Source of the DNA: Candidatus Atabeyarchaeum deiterrae
Lineage (GTDB): Archaea > Asgardarchaeota > Atabeyarchaeia > Atabeyarchaeales > Atabeyarchaeaceae
Direction: 5' to 3'
Assembly (NCBI GenBank): GCA_037310415.1
Contig: CP147780.1
Coordinates: 1,280,001-1,344,000, forward strand
DNA: 64,000 nt
Shown: positions 8,405 to 57,549 of the stretch, piece after piece
Layout of the letters: each line of letters starts with the position of its first letter
How positions within the stretch are numbered: position 1 is the stretch's first letter
Translations under genes and position numbers: made by a program
Notes under the pieces: generated by a model
Databases searched by the model: none
The model's input: the letters and a program-made list of their open reading frames with translations, nothing else
What the model was told of the DNA's origin: nothing

Positions 8405-9937
8405 TTACTTGTTTAGGATATTGTGGATGGGCGTTAGTCCCTTATAGACCTTCTTTAATGCATCATACATCCTGTTGTATGTGTTTACGTTCTCCTCGAT
8501 CGGGTTGTATGTTTCTCTGACCTTGAATATCTTTTCCAGTGAATCGAAATCTTTGTAGACGCCAAGTGCAACCGATGCCACCATCGCTGCCCCAACCGAT
8601 CCTACATCTTGGAGAACGTGAATCTGCTTGATTGGTTTGTTAAGTACGTCCGAGAATATCTGCATCCAGAGACTACTCTTTGCTCCTCCTCCAACACCGT
8701 TCAAAGCAACAATCTTCTGATTTAGGTTAACCTCAAACATGTCCTGAACCCATCTCGTGTTGTAGGCTACGCCTTCCATCACTGACCTGATCATGTCCCT
8801 CTTACTGTGATTCAGGGCCAGATTCACGAATCCACCTCTTGCTTTCGAATCGATGAATGGGCATCTCTCACCTAGCATCCATGGGGTGAATAACAGACAT
8901 TTCGATCCAGGCGGAGATTTTGTAGCCTCCTCGTCAAGAATCTGGTAGACGCCTTTGCCTGATTGCTCGGCTGTTCTTTTTTCTGATTCACAGAGTTCGT
9001 CCTTGAACCACTTCAAGCAACTACCTGCGTTCTCCATTTGACCGAGAAGCAATAGTTTGTTAGGATCTCCAGAACATATCGTTCCAACACCGCTGAGATC
9101 GAACAGTGGTTTATCCGTGTGGAGAGCTATCCAACCCGATGATCCCATGTAAAGGTGTGGATTACCATTCTTTATTGCTCCGGAGCCTATGCCGACGGCT
9201 GGAACATCTCCACAGCCACAGACAACCTGCACATTCTCCGTTAGTCCCAACTCATGGGCAGCTTCTTTAGTCAGGTTCCCAACCATATCAATCGTCTTCA
9301 CGACTTTGGATAGCTTTTCCTCTGTGAGCCCGATCTTCTCTACGATTTCCTTCTCAAACGTGTTTGTTTTCATATTGAACATTCCGTCAACAGAGGCACA
9401 ACTCCAATCCACGAAGAAATCTCCAACACACTTATAGATCATATAGTCCTTAACATCAACGAACTTTGCGGTCTTAGCGAATATCTCGGGTTCTTTTTCT
9501 TTGATCCACATTATCTTTGGTATTTGATCTTTGGCGGACATTGGTGGGATTACTGGTCTCCTGAGCAATTCCATTGGATCGAACAGCGTCATGAACTTGT
9601 CAGATTGCTTGGATGCTCTTGTATCAAGCCAAAGGAGGATCGGTCTCAGAGCCTTGCCGTTCTTGTCTACTGGAACTATCGAAGCCATCATGGCATCAAA
9701 GACCAATGCACCGATCTCAGAAGGCTTGATCTTAGTTTTCGCCAAGACTTCCCTAGTAGTCTTGACTATGGCCTCCCAGTAGACTTCAGGATCCTGCTCC
9801 GCCCAGCCAGGGTTCGGATAGCTGACATTATACTCAGCGGATGCAGTTCCAGCTATCTTGGCATCCGTGCCAACTATGGCTGCCTTGTTCATTTCTGTTC
9901 CGATGTCATGTGCCAAAATATACTTGAGTTCCGTCAT
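8405..9937 (-). CDS. FGGY-family carbohydrate kinase (xylulokinase-like)
   Basis: Motifs 'HDIGT...KA', 'PGWAEQDP', 'LWLDTRA', 'PKIMWIKE.EPE', 'GSCLKW', 'PWMLGERCP', 'VMEGVA', 'GGGAKS.LWMQI.SDV'. Confidence 0.92.
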   Translation of the reverse strand: MTELKYILAHDIGTEMNKAAIVGTDAKIAGTASAEYNVSYPNPGWAEQDPEVYWEAIVKTTREVLAKTKIKPSEIGALVFDAMMASIVPVDKNGKALRPILLWLDTRASKQSDKFMTLFDPMELLRRPVIPPMSAKDQIPKIMWIKEKEPEIFAKTAKFVDVKDYMIYKCVGDFFVDWSCASVDGMFNMKTNTFEKEIVEKIGLTEEKLSKVVKTIDMVGNLTKEAAHELGLTENVQVVCGCGDVPAVGIGSGAIKNGNPHLYMGSSGWIALHTDKPLFDLSGVGTICSGDPNKLLLLGQMENAGSCLKWFKDELCESEKRTAEQSGKGVYQILDEEATKSPPGSKCLLFTPWMLGERCPFIDSKARGGFVNLALNHSKRDMIRSVMEGVAYNTRWVQDMFEVNLNQKIVALNGVGGGAKSSLWMQIFSDVLNKPIKQIHVLQDVGSVGAAMVASVALGVYKDFDSLEKIFKVRETYNPIEENVNTYNRMYDALKKVYKGLTPIHNILNK

Positions 9938-9946
9938 CCTTCAATT

Positions 9947-11044
9947 TCACACCTCCAACAACTCATGAAGAGCCTTAACGCATCTTAGGTTATCTTCCAT
10001 TGTGGACACAGTAATACGAACATACTCTCCTTCAAGTCCCTTTGCACCAGTATAGTTCCTCACGAGAATCCCGCGCTGCATGAGCCCCATCTCTATCTTT
10101 CCTATAGGTAATTGACTATTCTCTAGCTTCACAAGTATAAAGTTTGTCTCAGAAGGATAGGGTCTTAGACCCTCAATTTTCGAGAACTCGTCGAACAGGA
10201 ATGTCCTTCCCTCAACTATCTTCCGAACGTTGCCTTGGGCATATTTGATGTCCTTCAAAGCTGCTACTGCTACCTTCTCGGCCAACAAGCTAACAGTGAA
10301 TGCGGGTCGCGCTCGTTCCAGATACTTTATGACTTTCAAGCTGCTTAATGCGTAACCAACTCTTAGACCAGCTAGACTGAACGCTTTTGAGAGCGTTCTG
10401 AGGCAAATCAAGTTCTCGTATTTGTCGATCAGTTTTGTGAGGCTTTTGCCGCAGAATTCATAGTAGGCTTCATCAAGTAGCAGTAGGACACCGGTGTCAA
10501 GTATCCTTTCTACATCCTCTTCAGGGACTACGCTTCCTACAGGGTTGTCTGGTCTGATAACAACAACGATCCTTGTCCTAGGGCTTATCTTCCTTAGTAT
10601 TCCGTCAATGTCGTATCTGAGGTCAGGTCTGGGTTTTGGGACATCCACGATATTTGCTCCAGCCACGCGAAGTCTCGCCCTGTATGGCGAGTACGTAGGT
10701 ATTGAGAGTATGGCCTCGTCTCCAGTTTCGATGAACGCTCTCGAAACAAGGTCTATTATCTCAGTTGAGCCATTTGCGACCATGATGCTTCCAGTCGTGA
10801 GCCCAGTGTAAGATGAGAGCGCTTCACGAAGTTCAAAATAGGATGAATCAGGGTACCACCCTAGTTGGTCGAACGCACCGTTCATGGCTTCCCTGACTTT
10901 GGGAGAAGGCGGATAAGGACTCTCATTCCCCATCATTCTGGCAAAGTCACTTCGATCCTTGTATAGGACACGAAGGATTGCCGTGGGATTATAGGGCTCA
11001 ACTTCCTTAACATACGGCTTGAAGAATCTGCTTACGTCTGGCAT
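9947..11044 (-). CDS. hisC: Histidinol-phosphate aminotransferase family (PLP class I/II)
   Basis: Motifs NESPY, YPD, NGSTE, PDNPVG, DEAYYEF, RTLSKAFSLAGLRVGY (PLP Lys), NFILV, RITVS. Start moved to 'MPDVSRFF' (ORF track starts at 11110). Confidence 0.85.
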   Translation of the reverse strand: MPDVSRFFKPYVKEVEPYNPTAILRVLYKDRSDFARMMGNESPYPPSPKVREAMNGAFDQLGWYPDSSYFELREALSSYTGLTTGSIMVANGSTEIIDLVSRAFIETGDEAILSIPTYSPYRARLRVAGANIVDVPKPRPDLRYDIDGILRKISPRTRIVVVIRPDNPVGSVVPEEDVERILDTGVLLLLDEAYYEFCGKSLTKLIDKYENLICLRTLSKAFSLAGLRVGYALSSLKVIKYLERARPAFTVSLLAEKVAVAALKDIKYAQGNVRKIVEGRTFLFDEFSKIEGLRPYPSETNFILVKLENSQLPIGKIEMGLMQRGILVRNYTGAKGLEGEYVRITVSTMEDNLRCVKALHELLEV

Positions 11045-13560: not shown

Positions 13561-14850
13561 CTACCTCTCCTCGACGGAGTTCTGTGATTTCTTCTTCGCT
13601 TCTTCCATGACTATTCGCTCAACTTCTCTGAAAGGTTTCCCGATTTCAATCGATATGCTTCTAACGTCTTCATACTCAGGCTTCAGGTTGAGGATCCTCC
13701 CATCGTTGCTTCTTGCGACCTTCACTCTAACATTCCTGACAATATTCCCTATCTGGACTTCAACTGGTTCTACCTCACGAGATAGAACAAACCTCTTGAC
13801 TGGATAGCTACGAACACCAAGTGTCCCAGTCTCATCGATTATCATACGTGATATCCTTTCGACCTCTCCCTCATCAACGATGACCTTCAGTATTTGACCA
13901 GGACGACTCTTTTTCATCATGACAGGAACAACGCAGACATCCCTAACTCCTTCACTTATCAATCGCTCCATCAAGAAACCGATGATCTCACCGCTAACGT
14001 CATCCAGATTCGTCTCTAAAACATAAACTCCATCGGTCAGGAGCCCATGGTCGATTTGGTCTCCAATGACAATCCTGAGGATGTTCGGCACCTCAACGAA
14101 GTCTCTTCTCCCAGCACCATAGCCAGTCGCGCGAGGTCTAAAATTGGGATAGAGTCTGCTAACTTCCTTGTTCACAATGTTCACCAAAATGGAAGCTCCT
14201 GTGGGTGTCGCCAATTCTGCTTCTACAGGGCCTCCTATCATTGGGAAACCCGACCCGCGAAGAATCTCAAGTGTGACAGGTCCAGGTGACTGAAATACTC
14301 CGTGAGAGAACTTGAAAAGCCCCCCACCCACTGCTACAGGCGTACAATAAACAGCCATACTGGGAAATACGTGTAAGTCATCAAGCGCTGTAGCGGCTCC
14401 GACTATGTCGGCGACTGTATCGGTTGATCCGAGTTCGCCCAATTCAACTTCGCTCACATCCACTTTGCCATGAACTTTCATTTCAGCTTCGAACAACGTG
14501 TCAACGGTTCTCAATGCAAAGTTTCTTGCATCGTCAGACAACTCCAACCCGCGGATGGATTCACTAACAGCACGCTTCACTGAAGAAGCGCTCCTACCTT
14601 CGCCTATCTCTAAGGGATCCTCCTCTATCTCTATATCAACTTGTTTGGCTTTGATCTCTTTCTTGGCAACGTCCTTGATGTTGACATCAATGCGCCTGCA
14701 CCAATCGACATGAGCCTTGACAGACTCAATGGCGTTTACGACCCTTGATTCACTTGCACCTACTCCAAGTAACGCGGCGATTATCATGTCTCCAGAGATC
14801 CCAGACAGCTGGCAATCCACAACCATGACCTGATTGCTCGGTTTCTCCAC
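13561..14850 (-). CDS. larC: Nickel-pincer cofactor nickel-insertion protein LarC
   Basis: Motifs DCQLSGISGDM, EAE.KVHG, ELG..DTVADIVG, ELATPTGA, GYGAG, PNILR, LETNLDD.SGE, MKKSRPG, ETGTLGVR, KPEYED. Confidence 0.95.
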   Translation of the reverse strand: MEKPSNQVMVVDCQLSGISGDMIIAALLGVGASESRVVNAIESVKAHVDWCRRIDVNIKDVAKKEIKAKQVDIEIEEDPLEIGEGRSASSVKRAVSESIRGLELSDDARNFALRTVDTLFEAEMKVHGKVDVSEVELGELGSTDTVADIVGAATALDDLHVFPSMAVYCTPVAVGGGLFKFSHGVFQSPGPVTLEILRGSGFPMIGGPVEAELATPTGASILVNIVNKEVSRLYPNFRPRATGYGAGRRDFVEVPNILRIVIGDQIDHGLLTDGVYVLETNLDDVSGEIIGFLMERLISEGVRDVCVVPVMMKKSRPGQILKVIVDEGEVERISRMIIDETGTLGVRSYPVKRFVLSREVEPVEVQIGNIVRNVRVKVARSNDGRILNLKPEYEDVRSISIEIGKPFREVERIVMEEAKKKSQNSVEER

Positions 14851-20555: not shown

Positions 20556-21224
20556 CTATGACTGTCCACCTGCTCCGACACCCTTCTTACCAATCTTGTC
20601 GAGTTTCCTAATTTCGGCAACTATTTCACTGTCAGCAGCATGAATGCCCTTCAGAACATCTTCCATTCTGTTAGCCAGTCTTACGTCTTTGGGCCCCTCA
20701 GCTAGACAGCGTGCAAGTATTTCCATGAAAGCCTTGTCAACATTATCAGTCGTCTTCGCCGACGTTTCCAAGTAGTTATCCAATCTCATTGCATTGGCAG
20801 CTGCTTTTCCTTCTTCGAAACTGGTTTCACGCTTGTCCTTTAGATCAGCCTTGTTTCCTATTAGGGTCATTGGGATGCGGTATGGTATCCTCTTCCGAAC
20901 CTCGCTACACCAGTCTTCTACATGTTTGAATGTTTCTTTCCTTGTAAGGTCGAATACCATCAGAGTTGCTGCAGCTCCAGAAAAGAAGTAATCATTTACC
21001 GAGTCATGTATGCTCTGTCCTCTGACATCGAAAATTAGAAGATACAGAGTTCTGTCATTGAACTCGTAGATCCTAGTGATCACATCCGCGCCTATCGTTG
21101 CGACGTACTCAGGTCTAAACAGCATCCCCGCTTGAGCTCGGATCAGAGAGGTTTTACCGACGCGAGAGTCCCCTATTACTATTAGCTTGTAGGTACGGTT
21201 CTCGCGACTTGGTTCACCTGTCAT
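20556..21224 (-). CDS. Rab-like small GTPase (Ras superfamily)
   Basis: G1 GDSRVGKTS, G2 YVATIG, G3 DVRGQ, G4 NKAD, G5 ETSAK. RabF-like segments IGADV, FFSGA, MVFDLT. Confidence 0.93.
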   Translation of the reverse strand: MTGEPSRENRTYKLIVIGDSRVGKTSLIRAQAGMLFRPEYVATIGADVITRIYEFNDRTLYLLIFDVRGQSIHDSVNDYFFSGAAATLMVFDLTRKETFKHVEDWCSEVRKRIPYRIPMTLIGNKADLKDKRETSFEEGKAAANAMRLDNYLETSAKTTDNVDKAFMEILARCLAEGPKDVRLANRMEDVLKGIHAADSEIVAEIRKLDKIGKKGVGAGGQS

Positions 21225-50835: not shown

Positions 50836-50861
50836 TTGTTAGGAAGAAATATTAGGCGTCC
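50836..50861 (+). repeat. Promoter-region repeat copy 1 (TTGTTAGGAAGAAATATTAGGCGTCC)
   Basis: 23/26 identical to 53856-53881. Each copy starts exactly 80 nt before its ORF start. Confidence 0.75.
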
Positions 50862-50915: not shown

Positions 50916-53642
50916 GTGATGATAAGGAACCACGCCTCCTTGTCGACGTGTTTAGTTATGTCAGTTCTAATCCTGCTCCTTCTCCTTCCAGTGGGACAGG
51001 TCTCCTCACCACAGAGCCTAACGGACACTGCCAAGCCACAGCACTTCCTGACTGGGCCGCCGCCGAACGAAAACGGGTTTGGAGCGGCCTTGAATTTAGC
51101 TGACTCCGTGAATGGATATCAGGCGCATAGCCTAACGACGAGTGACAATTTGTCAACATGTCAAAGTCCATATCGCAACGTTACTCTTACCCAAAACCCG
51201 CCCAGTGGTTTCTCGGTCGCATGGCAGAACCTGTCGGTGTCCACGTTGACAGCTGTTCCAGATTTTAGAGAAGTTCAATACGCATCTGGCTCGACAAGTT
51301 ACCTGAGCCTAGTAAGAACTGGAGGCTTTTCTCGAGCTGCTATGAGATTTAGTCCGCCTGATGCAGTCAATCTGACGAGCGTGTGGCTATACTACGAATC
51401 AGACGAGGCTATACCAAGTGCGCAGCTGCAAGTTTGGTCAAAGGGCACCAACAATGGTACCACTCCTCAGGGAGGATCGGTTATCGCGACTGTCTCGCCT
51501 CTTCCATCAGGACCGGCTGCCTGGCGTAACCTGACATTAAGCAATCCCGTGTTCCTGGCAAATGGCAGCTATTACTGGATTGTGGTAGATGCAAGTAGTA
51601 TCAATCCTAGTAAGTATGTGCGGTGGTACTACATCAATGATTCAGGTGGGCTTTTTGATCAGAAGCTAGCGGCGGCATACACGAGCTCATGGATAGATGA
51701 GATCAACTTCCCTCTCTATTCCCAGCCTTATCTGAACCTCATGCTGGTGCTCAAAGTCTTGCCAGTCGTCAGCGGCAATCCTTCCAAAGTGATGACTTAC
51801 TCTTCGCCGGGTAAGGTCAAGATGAGGGAATTGACCAGCGGTACGCTGATGTCAAATAACTCCACAGGAATACTCGCAACTACTCACAGGTTTATTCTGA
51901 GCACAAACACGTCAGTTAGCTTTGCCGAAAACTGGACTGCAAGATTTGAGAAATATCAGATCGGCGCCGTGCAAACAACCTACAATGCGTTACCCGGATC
52001 GACGTCGTGGGAAGCTCTGTTTTCAAGTTTAGCAAAACCATCGAGCCCGTACGCATGGTACAATAGGACTCTGAAAGTTGTTTCAATCCCGAGCGGCTGG
52101 CAGATCGATCCATTGAACAATGTGACAAATGACAATAACATTAACTTTACAGCATCATTCTTCAATGCCAGCGGGTACCTTTTAATAACGCAGACAGATA
52201 ATTTGATCGTGACTGGAATATGGGATGCATGGTGGACAATCGATGCGAAATCATCTTACCACGTTACTCTGTCAGCGCCCTCACAGGTCATAACGGGACA
52301 ATTATTCAATATTAGCATAACTCCGCCTATTGCCTCCTCCAACTGCAATATTACATTGTATGATGGAGCAGGCTCTAACATATTTAGCAGAAGCTTAGTC
52401 GTACCCCCATTCTCAACGTATTACTTCCCCATCAGACTAAACCAAACTGGGAACTTCAACGTAACCATTTTCGATAGACTCGCTTCTATTCCTGAGGCTA
52501 GTTACACAATACTGCCAACAATCAGCTCCTTACCTGCATTGACTTCTTTAGATCTTCAGTCTTCAACACTCAAGGCAAGCTGGGGAGACATTGTTGCAGT
52601 AACGTTCAGATACATGAACACAACTCTTGGCTCCAACAGAGAGTTCCCTAACCTCCCAGACGTAACCGTTTATTCAGTCAGCGATAACTTCACCATAAGA
52701 AATCTTGAAAGTTTAGGCAGTGGATGGTACTCATTCAATTTTGAAACAAGGTTGCTGCCCACATCCGGTAGCTACATTCTCACGATTGCCCTTTCATATG
52801 AGGGAACCTACCTAAACCAGGAGACCCTGACACTCCAACTGGATCCGCCAGGAATCTCCCCGATATTGTTAGTACTTGTTGGAGGCGGCTCTGGAGGAGC
52901 AGTCATAGCAGTTGTAGCAGCTCGGAGATACTTCGGTGGCAGGAAACTGAAAGAAGAAAAGAAGAGCAAGGTTCTCCTGCAGACCGCAAGTCTAGCCCAG
53001 CTAGTTGTGGTGGACCTTGCAAGCGGTCGATCAGTCTACAGCAGAAGCATTGGAACCGAGGAAAGTGTCGACCCTAACCTCATAAGCGGATTCCTCTCAG
53101 CCAACCAGTCAATCTTGGGCGAAGTTTTCAGGAAGAAAGCCCGCACAGGCTTAAGGTTTGCCGACTACGGTGAATACAAAGTCATTTCCAATGTTGGCGA
53201 TCACGTTCTGTCAGCGTTGTTCGCCACGGAAGCCGCAGGTGAGGAGCTAACAGGTGTGCTTGAGAAATTTACACAGAAATTCGAGAGAAAATACAGTAAG
53301 ACACTCGAAACCTGGGACGGAGATCCCAATGCATTCAAAGATGCCGATGCGATTGCTGACGAGGTGTTTTCACTACCATTGACATCCCCATACGTTCTAA
53401 TGGAACAGGATTTCAGCAAGAGAAGACTTAGCGGCATCGAGAAAAAGGTCGTAGAGGAAGCTAGAAGAATATCGTCTGATCGCGGATTCTTCTTCATGCC
53501 TCGTATTATCGACTTCCTTCTGACAAAGGAAGGAGTGAAGAGAAGCGAGACTATAGATGTCATCAGATCTCTTGTAGACAAAGGCATACTCAAACAGCTC
53601 ACCGTGAGTCAAGCTGCGGAACTCAGCGACAAAGGAGGATAA
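50916..53642 (+). CDS. Single-pass membrane protein: signal peptide, beta-rich ectodomain, TM helix, cytoplasmic longin + winged-helix domain (paralog A)
   Basis: Hydrophobic N-terminus; S/T/N-rich ectodomain with many NxS/T sequons; TM 'ILLVLVGGGSGGAVIAVVAA' + RR; longin pattern 'LVVVD..SGRSVYSR......DPNLISGFLSA...I..EV...F...FE.KY...L..W.G....F'. Confidence 0.85.
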   Translation: MMIRNHASLSTCLVMSVLILLLLLPVGQVSSPQSLTDTAKPQHFLTGPPPNENGFGAALNLADSVNGYQAHSLTTSDNLSTCQSPYRNVTLTQNPPSGFSVAWQNLSVSTLTAVPDFREVQYASGSTSYLSLVRTGGFSRAAMRFSPPDAVNLTSVWLYYESDEAIPSAQLQVWSKGTNNGTTPQGGSVIATVSPLPSGPAAWRNLTLSNPVFLANGSYYWIVVDASSINPSKYVRWYYINDSGGLFDQKLAAAYTSSWIDEINFPLYSQPYLNLMLVLKVLPVVSGNPSKVMTYSSPGKVKMRELTSGTLMSNNSTGILATTHRFILSTNTSVSFAENWTARFEKYQIGAVQTTYNALPGSTSWEALFSSLAKPSSPYAWYNRTLKVVSIPSGWQIDPLNNVTNDNNINFTASFFNASGYLLITQTDNLIVTGIWDAWWTIDAKSSYHVTLSAPSQVITGQLFNISITPPIASSNCNITLYDGAGSNIFSRSLVVPPFSTYYFPIRLNQTGNFNVTIFDRLASIPEASYTILPTISSLPALTSLDLQSSTLKASWGDIVAVTFRYMNTTLGSNREFPNLPDVTVYSVSDNFTIRNLESLGSGWYSFNFETRLLPTSGSYILTIALSYEGTYLNQETLTLQLDPPGISPILLVLVGGGSGGAVIAVVAARRYFGGRKLKEEKKSKVLLQTASLAQLVVVDLASGRSVYSRSIGTEESVDPNLISGFLSANQSILGEVFRKKARTGLRFADYGEYKVISNVGDHVLSALFATEAAGEELTGVLEKFTQKFERKYSKTLETWDGDPNAFKDADAIADEVFSLPLTSPYVLMEQDFSKRRLSGIEKKVVEEARRISSDRGFFFMPRIIDFLLTKEGVKRSETIDVIRSLVDKGILKQLTVSQAAELSDKGG

Positions 53643-53855
53643 GTGGACGACTGATAACTACAATGGAGGACCGATTTTACCTGCGACTGGCAAGAACGAC
53701 AATTCGACCGACGACATCACGGTCATGTAGTTGAAGTTTGCATCAGAAAGAAACAGTTCTGGCAAGAATCGGGCACAACCTACTGAAGAACTGATTTGCT
53801 GTTATGACTTTGCCGTTATGGGCTTTTCGCAATAGAATTTCGTGAGGCTGCGAAA

Positions 53856-53881
53856 TTGTTAGGAAGACATATTAAGCGCCC
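53856..53881 (+). repeat. Promoter-region repeat copy 2 (TTGTTAGGAAGACATATTAAGCGCCC)
   Basis: 23/26 identical to 50836-50861. Confidence 0.75.
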
Positions 53882-53935
53882 CCATTGAGTACTAGTTCTT
53901 AGAGAGCGGAAATCACTGATGTAGGGGACCCTTTC

Positions 53936-56900
53936 ATGAGGCGAAAGTCTTCACGCCTTTTCACTCTACTCATCTTGTCAACTCTGATTGTTTCAATGGC
54001 AAGCATCCCAAGCCTTGTTCCTACGACATTTTCGTCGATTAACTCTGCTAAGCCTGAGAATTCCTTCTTCGCGCCACCTGCGAACCAGAATGCTTCTGGA
54101 TCACCAGCGAATCTGATGGAGTCCGTGAACGGATGGCGGGCGACCACTACGATGAAGGCGAACAACACGCGCGCGGACACGAATGACCGCAACGCGACGT
54201 TCTCGGAATCTCCAGTAAGTGGGTTCTCGCTTGCATGGCAGAACGTCACAATATCGAACCTGACGGCGACCAACGACGCTAGGGAAGTGCAGGGTGGGAG
54301 TACCGCTACCTTTGTAGGTATTAATGGGGATCCAAGCAACAATCAAGGGCTTGCTATGAGGATCACCACTACGGACAAGGTGAACCTGACGGGTATCTGG
54401 ATTTATTACACACTCACAGGATCATTGACAGTTCCCTTGACGGTTCTCTCATCAACGACGGCTTCTGCAACCCCAACCGGGTCGGTAATCGCGCAAGGAA
54501 CCGTTGAAGGAACAGGAGGAGGAGCTGTCTGGGGCTACGTGAAATTCAATGCGCCAGCCACCATTACGGAGGTTGACTACGTGTGGATAGTCGTGAACGC
54601 CTCCTCCTTGAGTAGCGCACAGTTCTTCAACTGGGGGTACAAACAGGATTCGGGAGGAGCGGATTCTCACTTGGCGTCGGCAGGCGTTGATGGTGTTGGA
54701 TGGGTAAGTGAGTTTTTCATTCTTACTCCTCACCAATATATCAATTTCTTGCTTGTCTTGAACGTCTTGCCAGTGGATGTCAGTGGACAGCACGTTAGGA
54801 CTTACAACGCTCCTGACCAAGTCAACATGTACCTGAACGCTACGACGCAGATCGTAAACAATGTTACCCGCGTCTCAAACTCCTACCACACCTTTGTTCT
54901 GAGCGCGAACACATCCATTACCTTCACGGTGAACTGGACTGCTAGGTTTGAGTTCTCTCAGCCGAATGCAGTCTCAACCCACTACATCGCGGAGAACGCC
55001 CTCACGCTCTGGAATGCGACGTTTGTTAGTGGGAGCAAGCCGTCCAACCCATACACCTGGTATAACCGGACGCTCAAGGTCAGCCCGATTCCATCACTCT
55101 GGACCGTACCAGATCCCTCATCAAATGTAACCAGCATCCCTTACATAGGCTTCAGTTTCACCGCTGGGTCAGGCTCCTTCCTGATAACACAGACGGGCAA
55201 CGTTAATGGTTCTGGTCCTTGGGGCGCAGGATGGCTGATAAGAGCCCAATCATCCTACTCTGTCAAAGGGACAGCGGCCTCACAAGTCATAAGGGGGTTA
55301 CCGTTAACAGTAGACATATCAACAGCGCCGCTCTCTCCGAGTCACTGTAGCTTCACTCTCTACAATGGTCTAGGTTCCGCCATCTACAGCAGGATTCTAG
55401 TGGTTCCTTCTACCTCATATTCTCTTCAAGTAAGGCTTAATGAGACTGGCGTTCACACGGCATATCTCTTTGACACGTGGGACAGTGGAAATGAGGTGAG
55501 CCTCAATAGCACTCTGACCGTGGCTGCCCTTCAACCCCTGTCTAATGTTACAATTACTGGCATCAACCAGCCCATACTCTGGAACGACGCAATAGTCAAC
55601 TTCAAGTTTCTCAACAACTCGGCAGGTGGAATAGCTGTTTCACCACTGCAGGTTACTATCAACGGAACACCTCCGTCGGGTGGATTCACCTATAACGGTG
55701 GCACTGGCGTTGTGACGGCGACGTGGAGTACTGCCACAGGCGGATGGCACTCAGGTATTAACTATGTCAACATAACCGCTGTGAGTGGCGTGTTCAGCAA
55801 TAAGACGGTTACTTTGATCAACATAACCGCCCCGAACGCTCTATTGCAGCTGAACGCAGCGCCTTACTCTGGCACCTACGGAGAGTCCATCTTGATTCGT
55901 TTCAGGTTTCTCAATAATACTGGTGGGATTCCTTCTGACATGCCTTCGTTAACGAGCTTTCTACTTAACAGTACCCTTTTTAGCCACACCTCTGCTGTAG
56001 GCGGATGGTATAATTGCACTGTTGATACGGCAGGCAGGTTCCCCATGACGGGGAATGTATCATTCCCCTCTGTGACATATTTCCTCAACTTCACTGCGAC
56101 GTATGGCGCCTATACTGCAAAGAACATAACGAGATTGACACTCTCAAGGATCCCTATGACGTTGGTGCTCACCGTGGACCAGACATCTGTTACAGCAGGA
56201 TCGTCCATCTCCGCTTCAGCGACATTGAGATACAACCTTGGGGCGAATCAGAGCTTTGCCCCTAATGGGCTCACGATCAGTTTCCAGTTTATAGTCAAAT
56301 ACACCAACGGCTCCACAGGCAACATAACCAAAGATGCAAGCATTCTCAGCGGGGTGGCCTCATCCTCACTTGCTACTGCAGGCGACATGACGTCAATTAC
56401 AGTCAATGCGACTTTTGTGCAGGACTATTTCAGGCTAAATGCAACCGCTTTGAGTAGCGAAGTCCTCGTAACACCGCCTCCTCCATTCCCCACAATGTTA
56501 GTCGTGCTGGCGGGCGGCGGAACTGGTGCCATTATCATAGGTGCCATAGTTGCAGCGAGAGTTCGGAGTAGGCGTAGGCTTCGCGAAGAGGCGAAGGCAT
56601 TAGTTCTCAGGCAGACCGCGAGCCTAGCTCGTCTAATTGTTGTGCACCTTGCGAGTGGCCGAAGCGTCTTCAGCAGGAGTCTTGGAACGGAAGAGGCTGT
56701 TGACCCCAACCTCATAAGCGGATTCCTCTCAGCCAACCAGTCAATCCTGCAAGAAGTCTTCCAGAAGAAGACTGGTGCGGGACTAAGATTTGCAGACTAC
56801 GGTGAATACAAGGTTGTCTCGCATCTGGGCAATTACGTCATGGCAACGCTGTTCTGCACGGAGGCTGCAGGAGAGGAATTACGGAGTGTGCTTGAGCAGT

Positions 56901-57292
56901 TCTCAGAGAAGTTCGAGAAAAAATATTCCAAGACCCTTGAGGCCTGGGATGGAGACATGGAAGCATTCAAAGACGCTGATGCAGTCGCCGACGAATACTT
57001 TAGTCTTCCGCTATGTTCGCCGTATGTCGTTGTTGGAGAGGATTTCACCCACAGAAGGCTAAGCGGCGACGAGAGAAAGGTCATAGAGGAAGCACAAAGA
57101 CTCTCCGCTGGAAGAGGATTCTTCTTCATAACCCTCATAATTGACTTCTTACTGACCAAGCAAGGCATGAAGAGAAGCAAGACGGTAGAAGTAATCAGAT
57201 CGCTCACGAACAGAGGGATATTCAGACAAGTGACTGTGGACGAAGCCGCGGAACTAGGCAGAGTGCAACAAGAAGCCAGTACACAACCCTGA
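53936..57292 (+). CDS. Single-pass membrane protein with cytoplasmic longin + winged-helix domain (paralog B, longer ectodomain)
   Basis: Same architecture as paralog A. Shared blocks: SVNG, SGFS.AWQN, REVQ, AMR, VNLT..W.YY, WIVV.AS, NWTARFE, PY.WYNRTLKV. Near-identical longin (DPNLISGFLSANQSIL, GLRFADYGEYKV). Confidence 0.85.
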   Translation: MRRKSSRLFTLLILSTLIVSMASIPSLVPTTFSSINSAKPENSFFAPPANQNASGSPANLMESVNGWRATTTMKANNTRADTNDRNATFSESPVSGFSLAWQNVTISNLTATNDAREVQGGSTATFVGINGDPSNNQGLAMRITTTDKVNLTGIWIYYTLTGSLTVPLTVLSSTTASATPTGSVIAQGTVEGTGGGAVWGYVKFNAPATITEVDYVWIVVNASSLSSAQFFNWGYKQDSGGADSHLASAGVDGVGWVSEFFILTPHQYINFLLVLNVLPVDVSGQHVRTYNAPDQVNMYLNATTQIVNNVTRVSNSYHTFVLSANTSITFTVNWTARFEFSQPNAVSTHYIAENALTLWNATFVSGSKPSNPYTWYNRTLKVSPIPSLWTVPDPSSNVTSIPYIGFSFTAGSGSFLITQTGNVNGSGPWGAGWLIRAQSSYSVKGTAASQVIRGLPLTVDISTAPLSPSHCSFTLYNGLGSAIYSRILVVPSTSYSLQVRLNETGVHTAYLFDTWDSGNEVSLNSTLTVAALQPLSNVTITGINQPILWNDAIVNFKFLNNSAGGIAVSPLQVTINGTPPSGGFTYNGGTGVVTATWSTATGGWHSGINYVNITAVSGVFSNKTVTLINITAPNALLQLNAAPYSGTYGESILIRFRFLNNTGGIPSDMPSLTSFLLNSTLFSHTSAVGGWYNCTVDTAGRFPMTGNVSFPSVTYFLNFTATYGAYTAKNITRLTLSRIPMTLVLTVDQTSVTAGSSISASATLRYNLGANQSFAPNGLTISFQFIVKYTNGSTGNITKDASILSGVASSSLATAGDMTSITVNATFVQDYFRLNATALSSEVLVTPPPPFPTMLVVLAGGGTGAIIIGAIVAARVRSRRRLREEAKALVLRQTASLARLIVVHLASGRSVFSRSLGTEEAVDPNLISGFLSANQSILQEVFQKKTGAGLRFADYGEYKVVSHLGNYVMATLFCTEAAGEELRSVLEQFSEKFEKKYSKTLEAWDGDMEAFKDADAVADEYFSLPLCSPYVVVGEDFTHRRLSGDERKVIEEAQRLSAGRGFFFITLIIDFLLTKQGMKRSKTVEVIRSLTNRGIFRQVTVDEAAELGRVQQEASTQP

Positions 57293-57357: not shown

Positions 57358-57549
57358 CTATTTCTTTTGCCTCTTCAGTCTCTCTTCGAACAGCTCGCTG
57401 GCCTTCTCCTTGTCCATGATTTTACCTGGCTTACTTTTCTCAAGTTCCTCTTTTCTCCTGTTCTGCAACTTGGCTATCATTTCTTTGTCCTTTTTCAGCT
57501 GCTCAGGACTCGGAGGAGCTTCATCGTCATCCTTTGGCGTCACAACCAC
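57358..57549 (-). CDS. Small highly charged hypothetical protein (61-63 aa)
   Basis: K/E-rich helical ORF with a GAGGG RBS and a TTTATA-like box upstream. The real start may be the GTG at 57543. Confidence 0.6.
   Translation of the reverse strand: MVVTPKDDDEAPPSPEQLKKDKEMIAKLQNRRKEELEKSKPGKIMDKEKASELFEERLKRQKK

Follow-up and report, generated by a model that had tools for sequence, protein, structure and literature searches.

A tandem pair of predicted Asgard surface glycoproteins carrying a cytoplasmic longin and winged-helix module

What might a longin domain do when it is fixed beneath a large surface protein? This question is raised by two neighbouring genes, here called A and B, in a 64,000-nucleotide stretch of the genome of Candidatus Atabeyarchaeum deiterrae (contig CP147780.1, positions 1,280,001 to 1,344,000), which we refer to as the window. 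The host genome is a single contig of 2,756,679 bp (2.76 Mb), and its nearest named relatives are Atabeyarchaeia, members of the Asgard archaea. A preliminary description made from the sequence of the window had read the two gene products as receptor-like proteins in which extracellular binding and transmembrane dimerisation assemble a longin dimer acting on small GTPases. The explanation that we favour, and to which we give about an even chance, is that A and B are surface proteins with a membrane-fixed docking platform, made of a longin domain and a winged helix, for a cytosolic partner that is most likely a small GTPase.

Genes A and B are neighbouring open reading frames (ORFs) on the same strand, and translation showed both to be open over positions 50916–53642 and 53936–57292 of the window, respectively (plus strand, as are all features of the two genes given below). 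Gene A, which has a second ATG at position 50919, encodes 908 residues arranged as a signal peptide, an ectodomain, a transmembrane (TM) helix, a longin domain and a winged helix, and its homologues are found in Atabeyarchaeia and Njordarchaeota. Based on its translation and on BLASTP comparison with A, gene B encodes 1118 residues with the same architecture and a longer ectodomain. The two products align from end to end in BLASTP, in good agreement with their first description as tandem paralogues of these lengths. The database gene models are shorter, with 894 residues for A and 1046 residues for B, as their starts lie 14 and 72 codons downstream of the ORF starts, and the database model of B lacks the signal peptide. 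Public gene calls for the family defined by the tail (A, B, P0003, P0006, L001, L003) often start at an internal methionine in this way, with the signal peptide cut off, so that automated topology predictions for those proteins would be misleading.

Hydropathy analysis of each protein showed a hydrophobic signal segment at the N terminus and, apart from it, a single strong hydrophobic segment. In A, this second segment comprises residues 646–670 (52851–52925), reaches a hydropathy peak of 2.32, contains a GGGSGG motif and is followed by a polybasic linker; in B, it comprises residues 850–876 (56483–56560), contains the motif GGGTGAIIIG and is likewise followed by a polybasic linker. The ectodomains, extending in A approximately from residue 33 to 645 (51012–52850), have few charged residues and are rich in serine, threonine and asparagine, which together make up 30–33% of the sequence (30% in A). 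Their content of N-x-S/T sequons was 22 in A and 34 in B, compared with 10.0 ± 2.7 and 16.2 ± 3.2 in the respective shuffled sequences. The C-terminal parts of A and B, with 240 or so residues, are highly charged and contain one sequon each. Within the close family, the 12 residues after the TM helix hold on average 5.9 lysine and arginine residues, versus 0.14 before it. Taken together, the signal peptide, the distribution of sequons and the positive-inside rule indicate that the large domain faces outward and that the tail is cytoplasmic. Hence, A and B have all the predicted features of type-I single-pass surface glycoproteins with the N terminus out and the C terminus in. The signal peptide, the sequon-rich ectodomain and the single glycine-rich TM helix of the preliminary description are thus borne out by hydropathy and by the comparison with shuffled sequences, and the tail, which had been taken to be cytoplasmic, is placed there by both the sequons and the basic residues.

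The fold of the ectodomain is probably a beta-sandwich of a lectin-like or Ig-like kind. The ectodomain of A gave a weak Pfam match to DUF4082 (E-value 0.003). In the ESM Atlas the leads were lectin-like and Ig-like with a score of 0.82, a value that shuffled proteins also reach, and the Atlas's own model of the ectodomain, with a predicted local distance difference test (pLDDT) score of 0.54, does not resolve the fold. The stalk of A could be aligned at three successive sites in B, with E-values of 1e-18, 1e-4 and 0.09, and secondary high-scoring segment pairs were also obtained in BLASTP. The additional residues in the ectodomain of B, which had been noticed before, can therefore be located at approximately residues 565–735 (55628–56140) and are further, diverged copies of the beta domain next to the membrane.

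The glycine content of the TM helix averaged 22% in the subfamily from Atabeyarchaeia and Njordarchaeota and 9% in distant members of the family, and a GxxxG motif was present in 23 of 28 subfamily members versus 33 of 112 distant members. A glycine-rich TM helix is thus a trait of this subfamily and not of the wider family. The proposed dimerisation through the TM helix has weak or indirect support, in the shape of this GxxxG motif.

We modeled the tail with AlphaFold2 from an alignment of 17 sequences and obtained two domains (pLDDT 75.9). The first domain covers residues 692–820 in A (52989–53375) and residues 896–1024 in B (56621–57007); the latter is 77% identical to the former, and its fold is taken from the model of A. 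In the model, helices pack on both faces of a five-stranded sheet, and the secondary structure elements follow the longin order β-β-α-β-β-β-α-α, with strands at 16–23 and 29–34, a helix at 43–61, strands at 69–73, 78–83 and 87–93, and helices at 99–121 and 127–141. Foldseek matched the tail to longin and roadblock proteins with E-values of about 1e-4. The best match in VIA-align was Sec22b, with a Z-score of 13.8 and a root-mean-square deviation (rmsd) of 2.4 Å over 122 residues, followed by VAMP7 (Z 12.4), Fuzzy (Z 11.9) and Ykt6 (Z 9.8–11.8); Sec22b, VAMP7 and Ykt6 were aligned over 120–122 residues. Further VIA-align matches included sedlin and synbindin of TRAPP, the sigma and mu subunits of AP complexes, the zeta and delta subunits of COPI, and SRX. 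The top 48 VIA-align entries were almost all longins, while the roadblock protein MglB scored Z 9.3, which places the domain closer to longins than to roadblocks. A wide structure search that was independent of Foldseek also yielded a longin, at Z 13.1.

None of the curated longin-type models (Pfam Longin, Sybindin, Fuz_longin_1, NPR2/NPR3 and Robl_LC7) matched A or B, or a single one of 111 family members, NCBIfam had no family for A or B, and profile searches of PDB sequences gave no match. More generally, Pfam and NCBIfam scans of A, B, their tails and the 111 family members returned nothing meaningful. The first tail domain is thus identified as a longin by its predicted fold, and no curated sequence model recognises it; the Foldseek matches, the topology and the Sec22b score described above bear out the longin fold that had been proposed. 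Among the 111 diverse members, the best-conserved motif was DPxLISGFLxA...F, situated at the start of the central helix. In roadblock proteins, the central helix is the dimerising element (Tran et al, 2024, PMC10933270).

The second tail domain was modeled by itself with AlphaFold2 from 111 sequences (pLDDT 86.7). It covers residues 823–908 in A (53382–53639) and residues 1027–1118 in B (57014–57289); the B domain is a row in the alignment and is 61% identical to that of A. The model consists of a three-helix bundle (helices at 18–34, 39–49 and 54–66) and a wing (strand at 70–72), as expected of a winged helix. Solved winged helices were matched in VIA-align with Z-scores of 6–8.7, among them the TbtB leader-binding domain (8.7), the C-terminal winged helix of MCM (7.5), MecI (7.4), ORC/Cdc6, RPA32C and LexA. 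In Foldseek the top rows were also winged helices, but all had E-values above 0.1, so no specific winged-helix subfamily could be assigned. Hence, the domain behind the longin is predicted to be a generic winged helix, as had been suggested from the sequence.

The two halves of the proteins have diverged to different degrees. In the tail (about 230 residues), A and B are 70% identical, whereas their ectodomains share about 40% identity over 576 residues in BLASTP; the cytoplasmic parts are indeed far more alike than the ectodomains, as first reported. The domain-wise Nei-Gojobori estimates of nonsynonymous (dN) and synonymous (dS) substitutions per site were 0.215 and 1.41 for the tail, corresponding to a dN/dS of about 0.15. 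For the ectodomain, dN was 0.57 and synonymous sites were saturated, with a proportion of synonymous differences (pS) of about 0.8. As the low dN of the tail goes together with a dS of 1.41, the likeness of the tails stems from purifying selection and not from recent copying. Recent gene conversion was considered as a source of this likeness and is ruled out by the same dS of about 1.4. In a tree of ectodomains, A grouped with A-type and B with B-type orthologues (support 100/100 each), which makes the duplication older than the sampled relatives. In the tail tree, A and B of this genome clustered together (support 95/94), and the approximately unbiased (AU) test did not reject the orthology topology of the tails (p 0.07 and 0.088). 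These trees contain a hint of an old homogenisation of the two tails.

A profile of the tail matched 1840 representatives of 50% identity clusters at E ≤ 1e-3 and 402 at E ≤ 1e-10, and all named members among the matches were Asgard archaea (Loki, Hod, Promethearchaeota, Harpocratesius). In a sample of the phylum, a match at E ≤ 1e-12 was present in 183 of 201 genomes and in 85 of the 86 high-quality ones, mostly in several copies, some of which are perhaps longin-only. A TM helix was found at most 60 residues upstream of the module in 135 of the 151 relatives with enough upstream sequence, and the gap between TM helix and module averaged 8.5–13.4 residues. The ESM Atlas also contained Asgard clusters of proteins of about 750 residues with the same two-domain shape, at a template modeling score (TM-score) of 0.69–0.75. 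The design of TM helix, longin and winged helix is thus spread across the Asgard phylum and is not peculiar to the A/B locus. Longin-tailed membrane proteins had been said to occur in Asgards, and they prove to be very common; no functional description had been known, and in a literature search that left subscription journals outside its scope we likewise found no published description of a surface glycoprotein with such a tail. The close subfamily of A and B is small, with 23 proteins of Atabeyarchaeia and Njordarchaeota. Three related contigs retain both the A-B tandem and its flanking genes, and the corresponding locus tags of Atabeyarchaeia-1 are adjacent. Besides the two full copies, A and B, the host genome has five ORFs whose match is confined to the longin part. 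The pair is a compact, minimal form of the family, with just these two full copies, short ectodomains and no extra C-terminal domains.

How could such a module work? A and B would be N-glycosylated type-I proteins of an adhesin-like or receptor-like kind, with their fast-evolving ectodomains facing outward and the constrained longin and winged-helix module held approximately 8–13 residues away from the membrane's inner face. The tail would probably serve as a docking platform, with A paired to B or each protein paired with itself, and its most likely partner would be one of the approximately 36 small-GTPase-like proteins of the host genome. The module would in this manner connect a patch of the cell surface with membrane or cytoskeletal machinery under GTPase control. 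The fixed short distance to the inner leaflet, the strong constraint on the tail and the motif in the central helix all favour a docking platform fixed at the membrane. Moreover, eukaryotic platforms such as NPRL2-NPRL3, TRAPPC1-C4 and Mon1-Ccz1 as a rule combine two paralogous longins (PMC10933270), and the conserved tandem of A and B fits this pattern. The tails would be comparable to the paired longin or roadblock subunits of these systems and of Ragulator. Beyond what the analysis shows, namely the architecture, the predicted topology and folds, the constraint and the phylum-wide design, we infer dimerisation, the identity of the partner and a flow of information across the membrane.

The predicted complex of the A tail with the B tail had an ipSAE of 0.32, while the best control scored 0.00. 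Of 80 solved complexes, 58 reached this mark, as did 2 of 110 mismatched pairs; the runs shared at least 75% of contacts, and the partner pLDDT was at least 68. The signal may reflect a likeness to longin dimers that have already been solved, and a pass as low as this is rated as weak support for dimerisation of the A and B longins. The longin dimer of the preliminary description therefore receives weak support from the complex prediction.

The link to GTPases was assessed in the host genome and in relatives. Several of the small-GTPase-like ORFs of the host genome have N-terminal extensions of 110–170 residues. In the window, the sole GTPase-like gene is a 222-residue ORF on the minus strand at 20556–21224 (genome ORF 1300559–1301278), which matches a small-GTPase profile at E 6e-53 and lies about 30 kb from the pair. 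Among relatives, we set 20 regions that surround family members in other Asgard genomes against 20 control regions from the same contigs. GTPase genes located at most 4 kb from a module gene numbered 9 in 23 loci (the 20 regions and L009–L011), versus about 2.8 expected from the controls. The giant family members L010 (from Harpocratesius), L032 and L033 each lie beside a gene for a GTPase of about 345–400 residues with an N-terminal extension. These three GTPases are orthologous (41–51% identity over their full length), and their N-terminal extensions gave no match to the module profile. On a further Loki-type contig (L039), two small GTPase genes (9520–10086 and 14249–14791, both on the plus strand) are each divergent from a family member at a distance of 60–260 bp.

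Several observations weigh against a GTPase as the partner of A and B. No GTPase gene adjoins the pair, the nearest ones lying about 13 kb away on the downstream and about 30 kb away on the upstream side, and the host genome has no orthologue of the Loki-type neighbour GTPase. Over the compared regions as a whole, the density of GTPase genes was 8 per 329 kb versus 6 per 398 kb in the controls and thus not clearly raised, so that what stands out is the count near the module genes and the three orthologous neighbours; the sample was small, and its loci are not independent, many coming from one family. The best structural matches of the tail are longins of SNAREs, coats and TRAPP, several of which bind peptides or coat subunits and not GTPases, and the match to an NPRL2-type chain has an rmsd of 12 Å and no sequence support. 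A common fold is in any case no proof of a common function. Hence, a link to a GTPase has moderate support in a Loki-type subfamily but no direct support for the Atabeyarchaeia pair, which has neither such a neighbour nor the orthologue, and the proposed action on Rab- or Rag-like GTPases has indirect support from relatives.

Two other proteins of the host genome carry a longin-like part. They are cytosolic, have about 350 residues and are encoded on the plus strand (L004:8779–9828 and L006:7595–8659); their N-terminal longin-like matches to the profile of the tail have E-values of about 1e-16 and about 1e-14, respectively, and they belong to no Pfam family. They could possibly be soluble partners of the tails or NPRL2-like adaptors. 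A 207-residue ORF with a weak match to V4R (TRAPPC3-like) is situated 1.7 kb downstream of the first of them.

A less probable explanation, which still deserves serious weight, is that A and B belong to the surface coat or act as adhesins, and that the tail is a non-signalling handle for sorting, anchoring or turnover that connects them to ESCRT-like, coat-like or cytoskeletal machinery. In eukaryotes, cargo tails and longin-containing adaptors serve such sorting and anchoring. The nearest structures, with SNARE, AP sigma/mu, COPI zeta/delta and TRAPP longins at the top, are in line with this explanation, as are the fast evolution of the ectodomains and the presence of multiple copies in most genomes. 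In 50 of the 151 relatives the protein extends by more than 100 residues past the winged helix, mostly by about 200 or 400 residues, and this extension is TPR-like, with an E-value of 1.9e-8 for the consensus against TPR and weak rows for MIT and Vps4 MIT at E 0.017–0.3. Vps28-C was looked for in these extensions and not detected, the only signals being TPR- and MIT-like. The extension occurs in P0046, P0084, P0139 and about 45 further relatives, many of them Loki-type, and is a possible link between the family and ESCRT-III or Vps4-type interactions. In addition, Asgard multidomain proteins that mix longin, Ig-like, TPR, HTH/PCI and Vps28-C domains have been described and linked to ESCRT-II (Makarova et al, 2024, PMC11188069). 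However, A and B themselves lack the TPR/MIT-like extension, the MIT matches stay under the Pfam cut-off, and a simple anchor would not need a tail so constrained. A GTPase could also mediate the link to the machinery, in which case this explanation overlaps with the GTPase-docking platform.

It is improbable that the longin acts as a sensor of a small ligand or lipid, in the manner of PAS/GAF-like folds or of the Ykt6 longin, and reports a metabolite or the condition of the inner leaflet. Such a role would suit a longin that follows a polybasic linker at a mean distance of 8.5–13.4 residues from the membrane, the structural matches include Ykt6, and longins have been placed in the PAS/GAF superfamily (review PMC4917890); however, the most conserved residues map in the model to the central helix and not to a cavity-forming loop. 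Least likely of all is a membrane-tethered transcription regulator, with a regulatory or dimerising longin and a winged helix that binds DNA at the membrane, as in one-component systems of the ToxR/CadC type, or after proteolytic release, since the DNA binders among the structural neighbours of the winged helix (MecI, BlaI, LexA, MarR, MntR, ORC/Cdc6) are offset by many protein-binding ones (RPA32C, the MCM C terminus, Stn1, Nse1, leader-binding domains of ribosomally synthesised and post-translationally modified peptides), the scores are all middling (Z ≤ 8.7), in about a third of relatives TPR-like repeats come after the domain, which is then internal, and across the 111 members its variable net charge (median +1, range −8 to +9) and a third helix without a conserved basic residue argue against a conserved DNA-binding role.

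The docking platform for a small GTPase thus remains the explanation that we prefer. A bolder and decidedly more tentative version of it holds that the design of TM helix, longin and winged helix is a prokaryotic device for coupling the surface to small GTPases, an NPRL2/3-like or Ragulator-like platform that recruits or regulates an Arf-, Rag- or Rab-like GTPase at contact with the outside. If true, receptor-linked GTPase platforms would have had a forerunner before eukaryotes, and the device would give a direct handle on the roles of many Asgard GTPases. Asgard genomes encode small GTPases and longin or roadblock proteins by the dozen, without known partners or roles. In the layout of these genomes, GTPases are seldom paired with their regulators (Tran et al, 2024, PMC10933270). 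As the present family fixes a longin platform under a surface glycoprotein at the inner face of the membrane, it provides a concrete entry point to the binding partner of the tail, and the minimal form represented by A and B is convenient for expression. Should a GTPase bind the tail, the coupling of the surface to a GTPase platform would be older than eukaryotes; should an ESCRT-type or coat-type adaptor bind it, the result would bear on protein sorting in cells without visible endomembranes.

Upstream of each gene we found a copy of a 26-nt motif, at 50836–50861 for A and at 53856–53881 for B (both on the plus strand). The copy before A includes a TATA-like AAATATTA box, and that before B is paralogous to it. 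These are the only two occurrences in the 2.76-Mb genome, each situated 55–57 nt before the start codon of its gene. In L001 and L003, the B orthologues are preceded by a similar A[AC]TATATTAGC element. A second common element, TTCGCAA, lies approximately 30–40 nt further upstream of the 26-nt motif and recurs before B orthologues. The two genes thus probably have separate but similar promoters, a function that we infer from these putative elements.

The flanking genes, which are syntenic in relatives, encode DnaJ, Sir2, a CoA-transferase, a HAD hydrolase, DUF6125, a KaiC-like ATPase and an acyl-CoA synthetase-like protein, and neither in this genome nor in the three related contigs do the flanks of the pair point to a functional link. 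Between gene B and the HAD hydrolase gene lies an ORF for 63 residues rich in lysine and glutamate (57358–57549, minus strand); as a 60-residue gene is called at the same position in L001–L003, it may be a real small protein. The A-type orthologues of other Atabeyarchaeia (P0007, P0011, P0017 and P0019) end in an acidic stretch of about 20 residues with (D/S)LL(E/D)N, which is absent from A of this genome.

Among known systems, the closest in domain order are NPRL2 and NPRL3 (yeast Npr2 and Npr3, subunits of GATOR1/SEACIT), in which an N-terminal longin is followed by winged-helix-type domains, as in the tails of A and B. Of 48,161 PDB representatives, only 8fw5_B from GATOR1 (Z 8.4, 175 residues, rmsd 12.0 Å) and 8adl_S from the SEA complex (Z 8.2, 180 residues, rmsd 12.3 Å) aligned to both tail domains in order, and both are probably NPRL2/Npr2-type subunits. 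The modeled tail therefore appears to share its domain order with NPRL2-type chains, a weak structural match without NPR2/NPR3 sequence similarity from which we claim no homology. NPRL2 and NPRL3 are paralogous subunits that pair and present a platform to a small GTPase, as proposed here for A and B, but they are soluble parts of a larger complex and have neither ectodomain nor TM helix. Families of 'NPRL2-like longin' and their fusions have been listed for Asgard archaea (Liu et al, bioRxiv 10.1101/2020.10.19.343400), so this type of longin domain is already catalogued in the phylum; in the Atabeyarchaeia genome paper, 'Longin domain' is merely a category of eukaryotic signature proteins (PMC11291895).

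The SNAREs Sec22b, VAMP7 and Ykt6 are the best match for a single domain and resemble A and B in having a longin on a membrane-anchored protein. They differ in being tail-anchored, with the order longin, SNARE coiled coil and C-terminal TM helix, which is reversed in A and B (ectodomain, TM helix, longin). A and B have no SNARE coiled-coil motif and no C-terminal tail anchor; what follows their longin is a winged helix and not a heptad coiled coil. Ragulator (LAMTOR1-5) with the Rag GTPases, and the SRX domain of SRalpha with SRbeta, are longin or roadblock platforms attached to a membrane that dock a small GTPase, much as proposed for A and B, and LAMTOR, MglB and SRX are among the structural matches at Z 8–10. 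In contrast to A and B, Ragulator is attached through lipidation of LAMTOR1 and SRX binds a GTPase that is itself TM-anchored, and neither of them is carried as a tail by a large surface glycoprotein.

Of the same superfamily and phylum are the Asgard proteins of Tran et al (2024, PMC10933270) and the Lokiarchaeota Roadblock-Longin dimer in PDB entry 8yqg. The latter, whose longin domain is dimeric, matches the tail with Z 11.2–11.3 over 131–132 residues. These proteins differ from A and B in being soluble or fused to GTPases, and the words 'transmembrane' and 'winged' do not occur in PMC10933270. In light of these comparisons, the A/B pair is a compact representative of a large Asgard family and is best called a variant of the longin-platform proteins.

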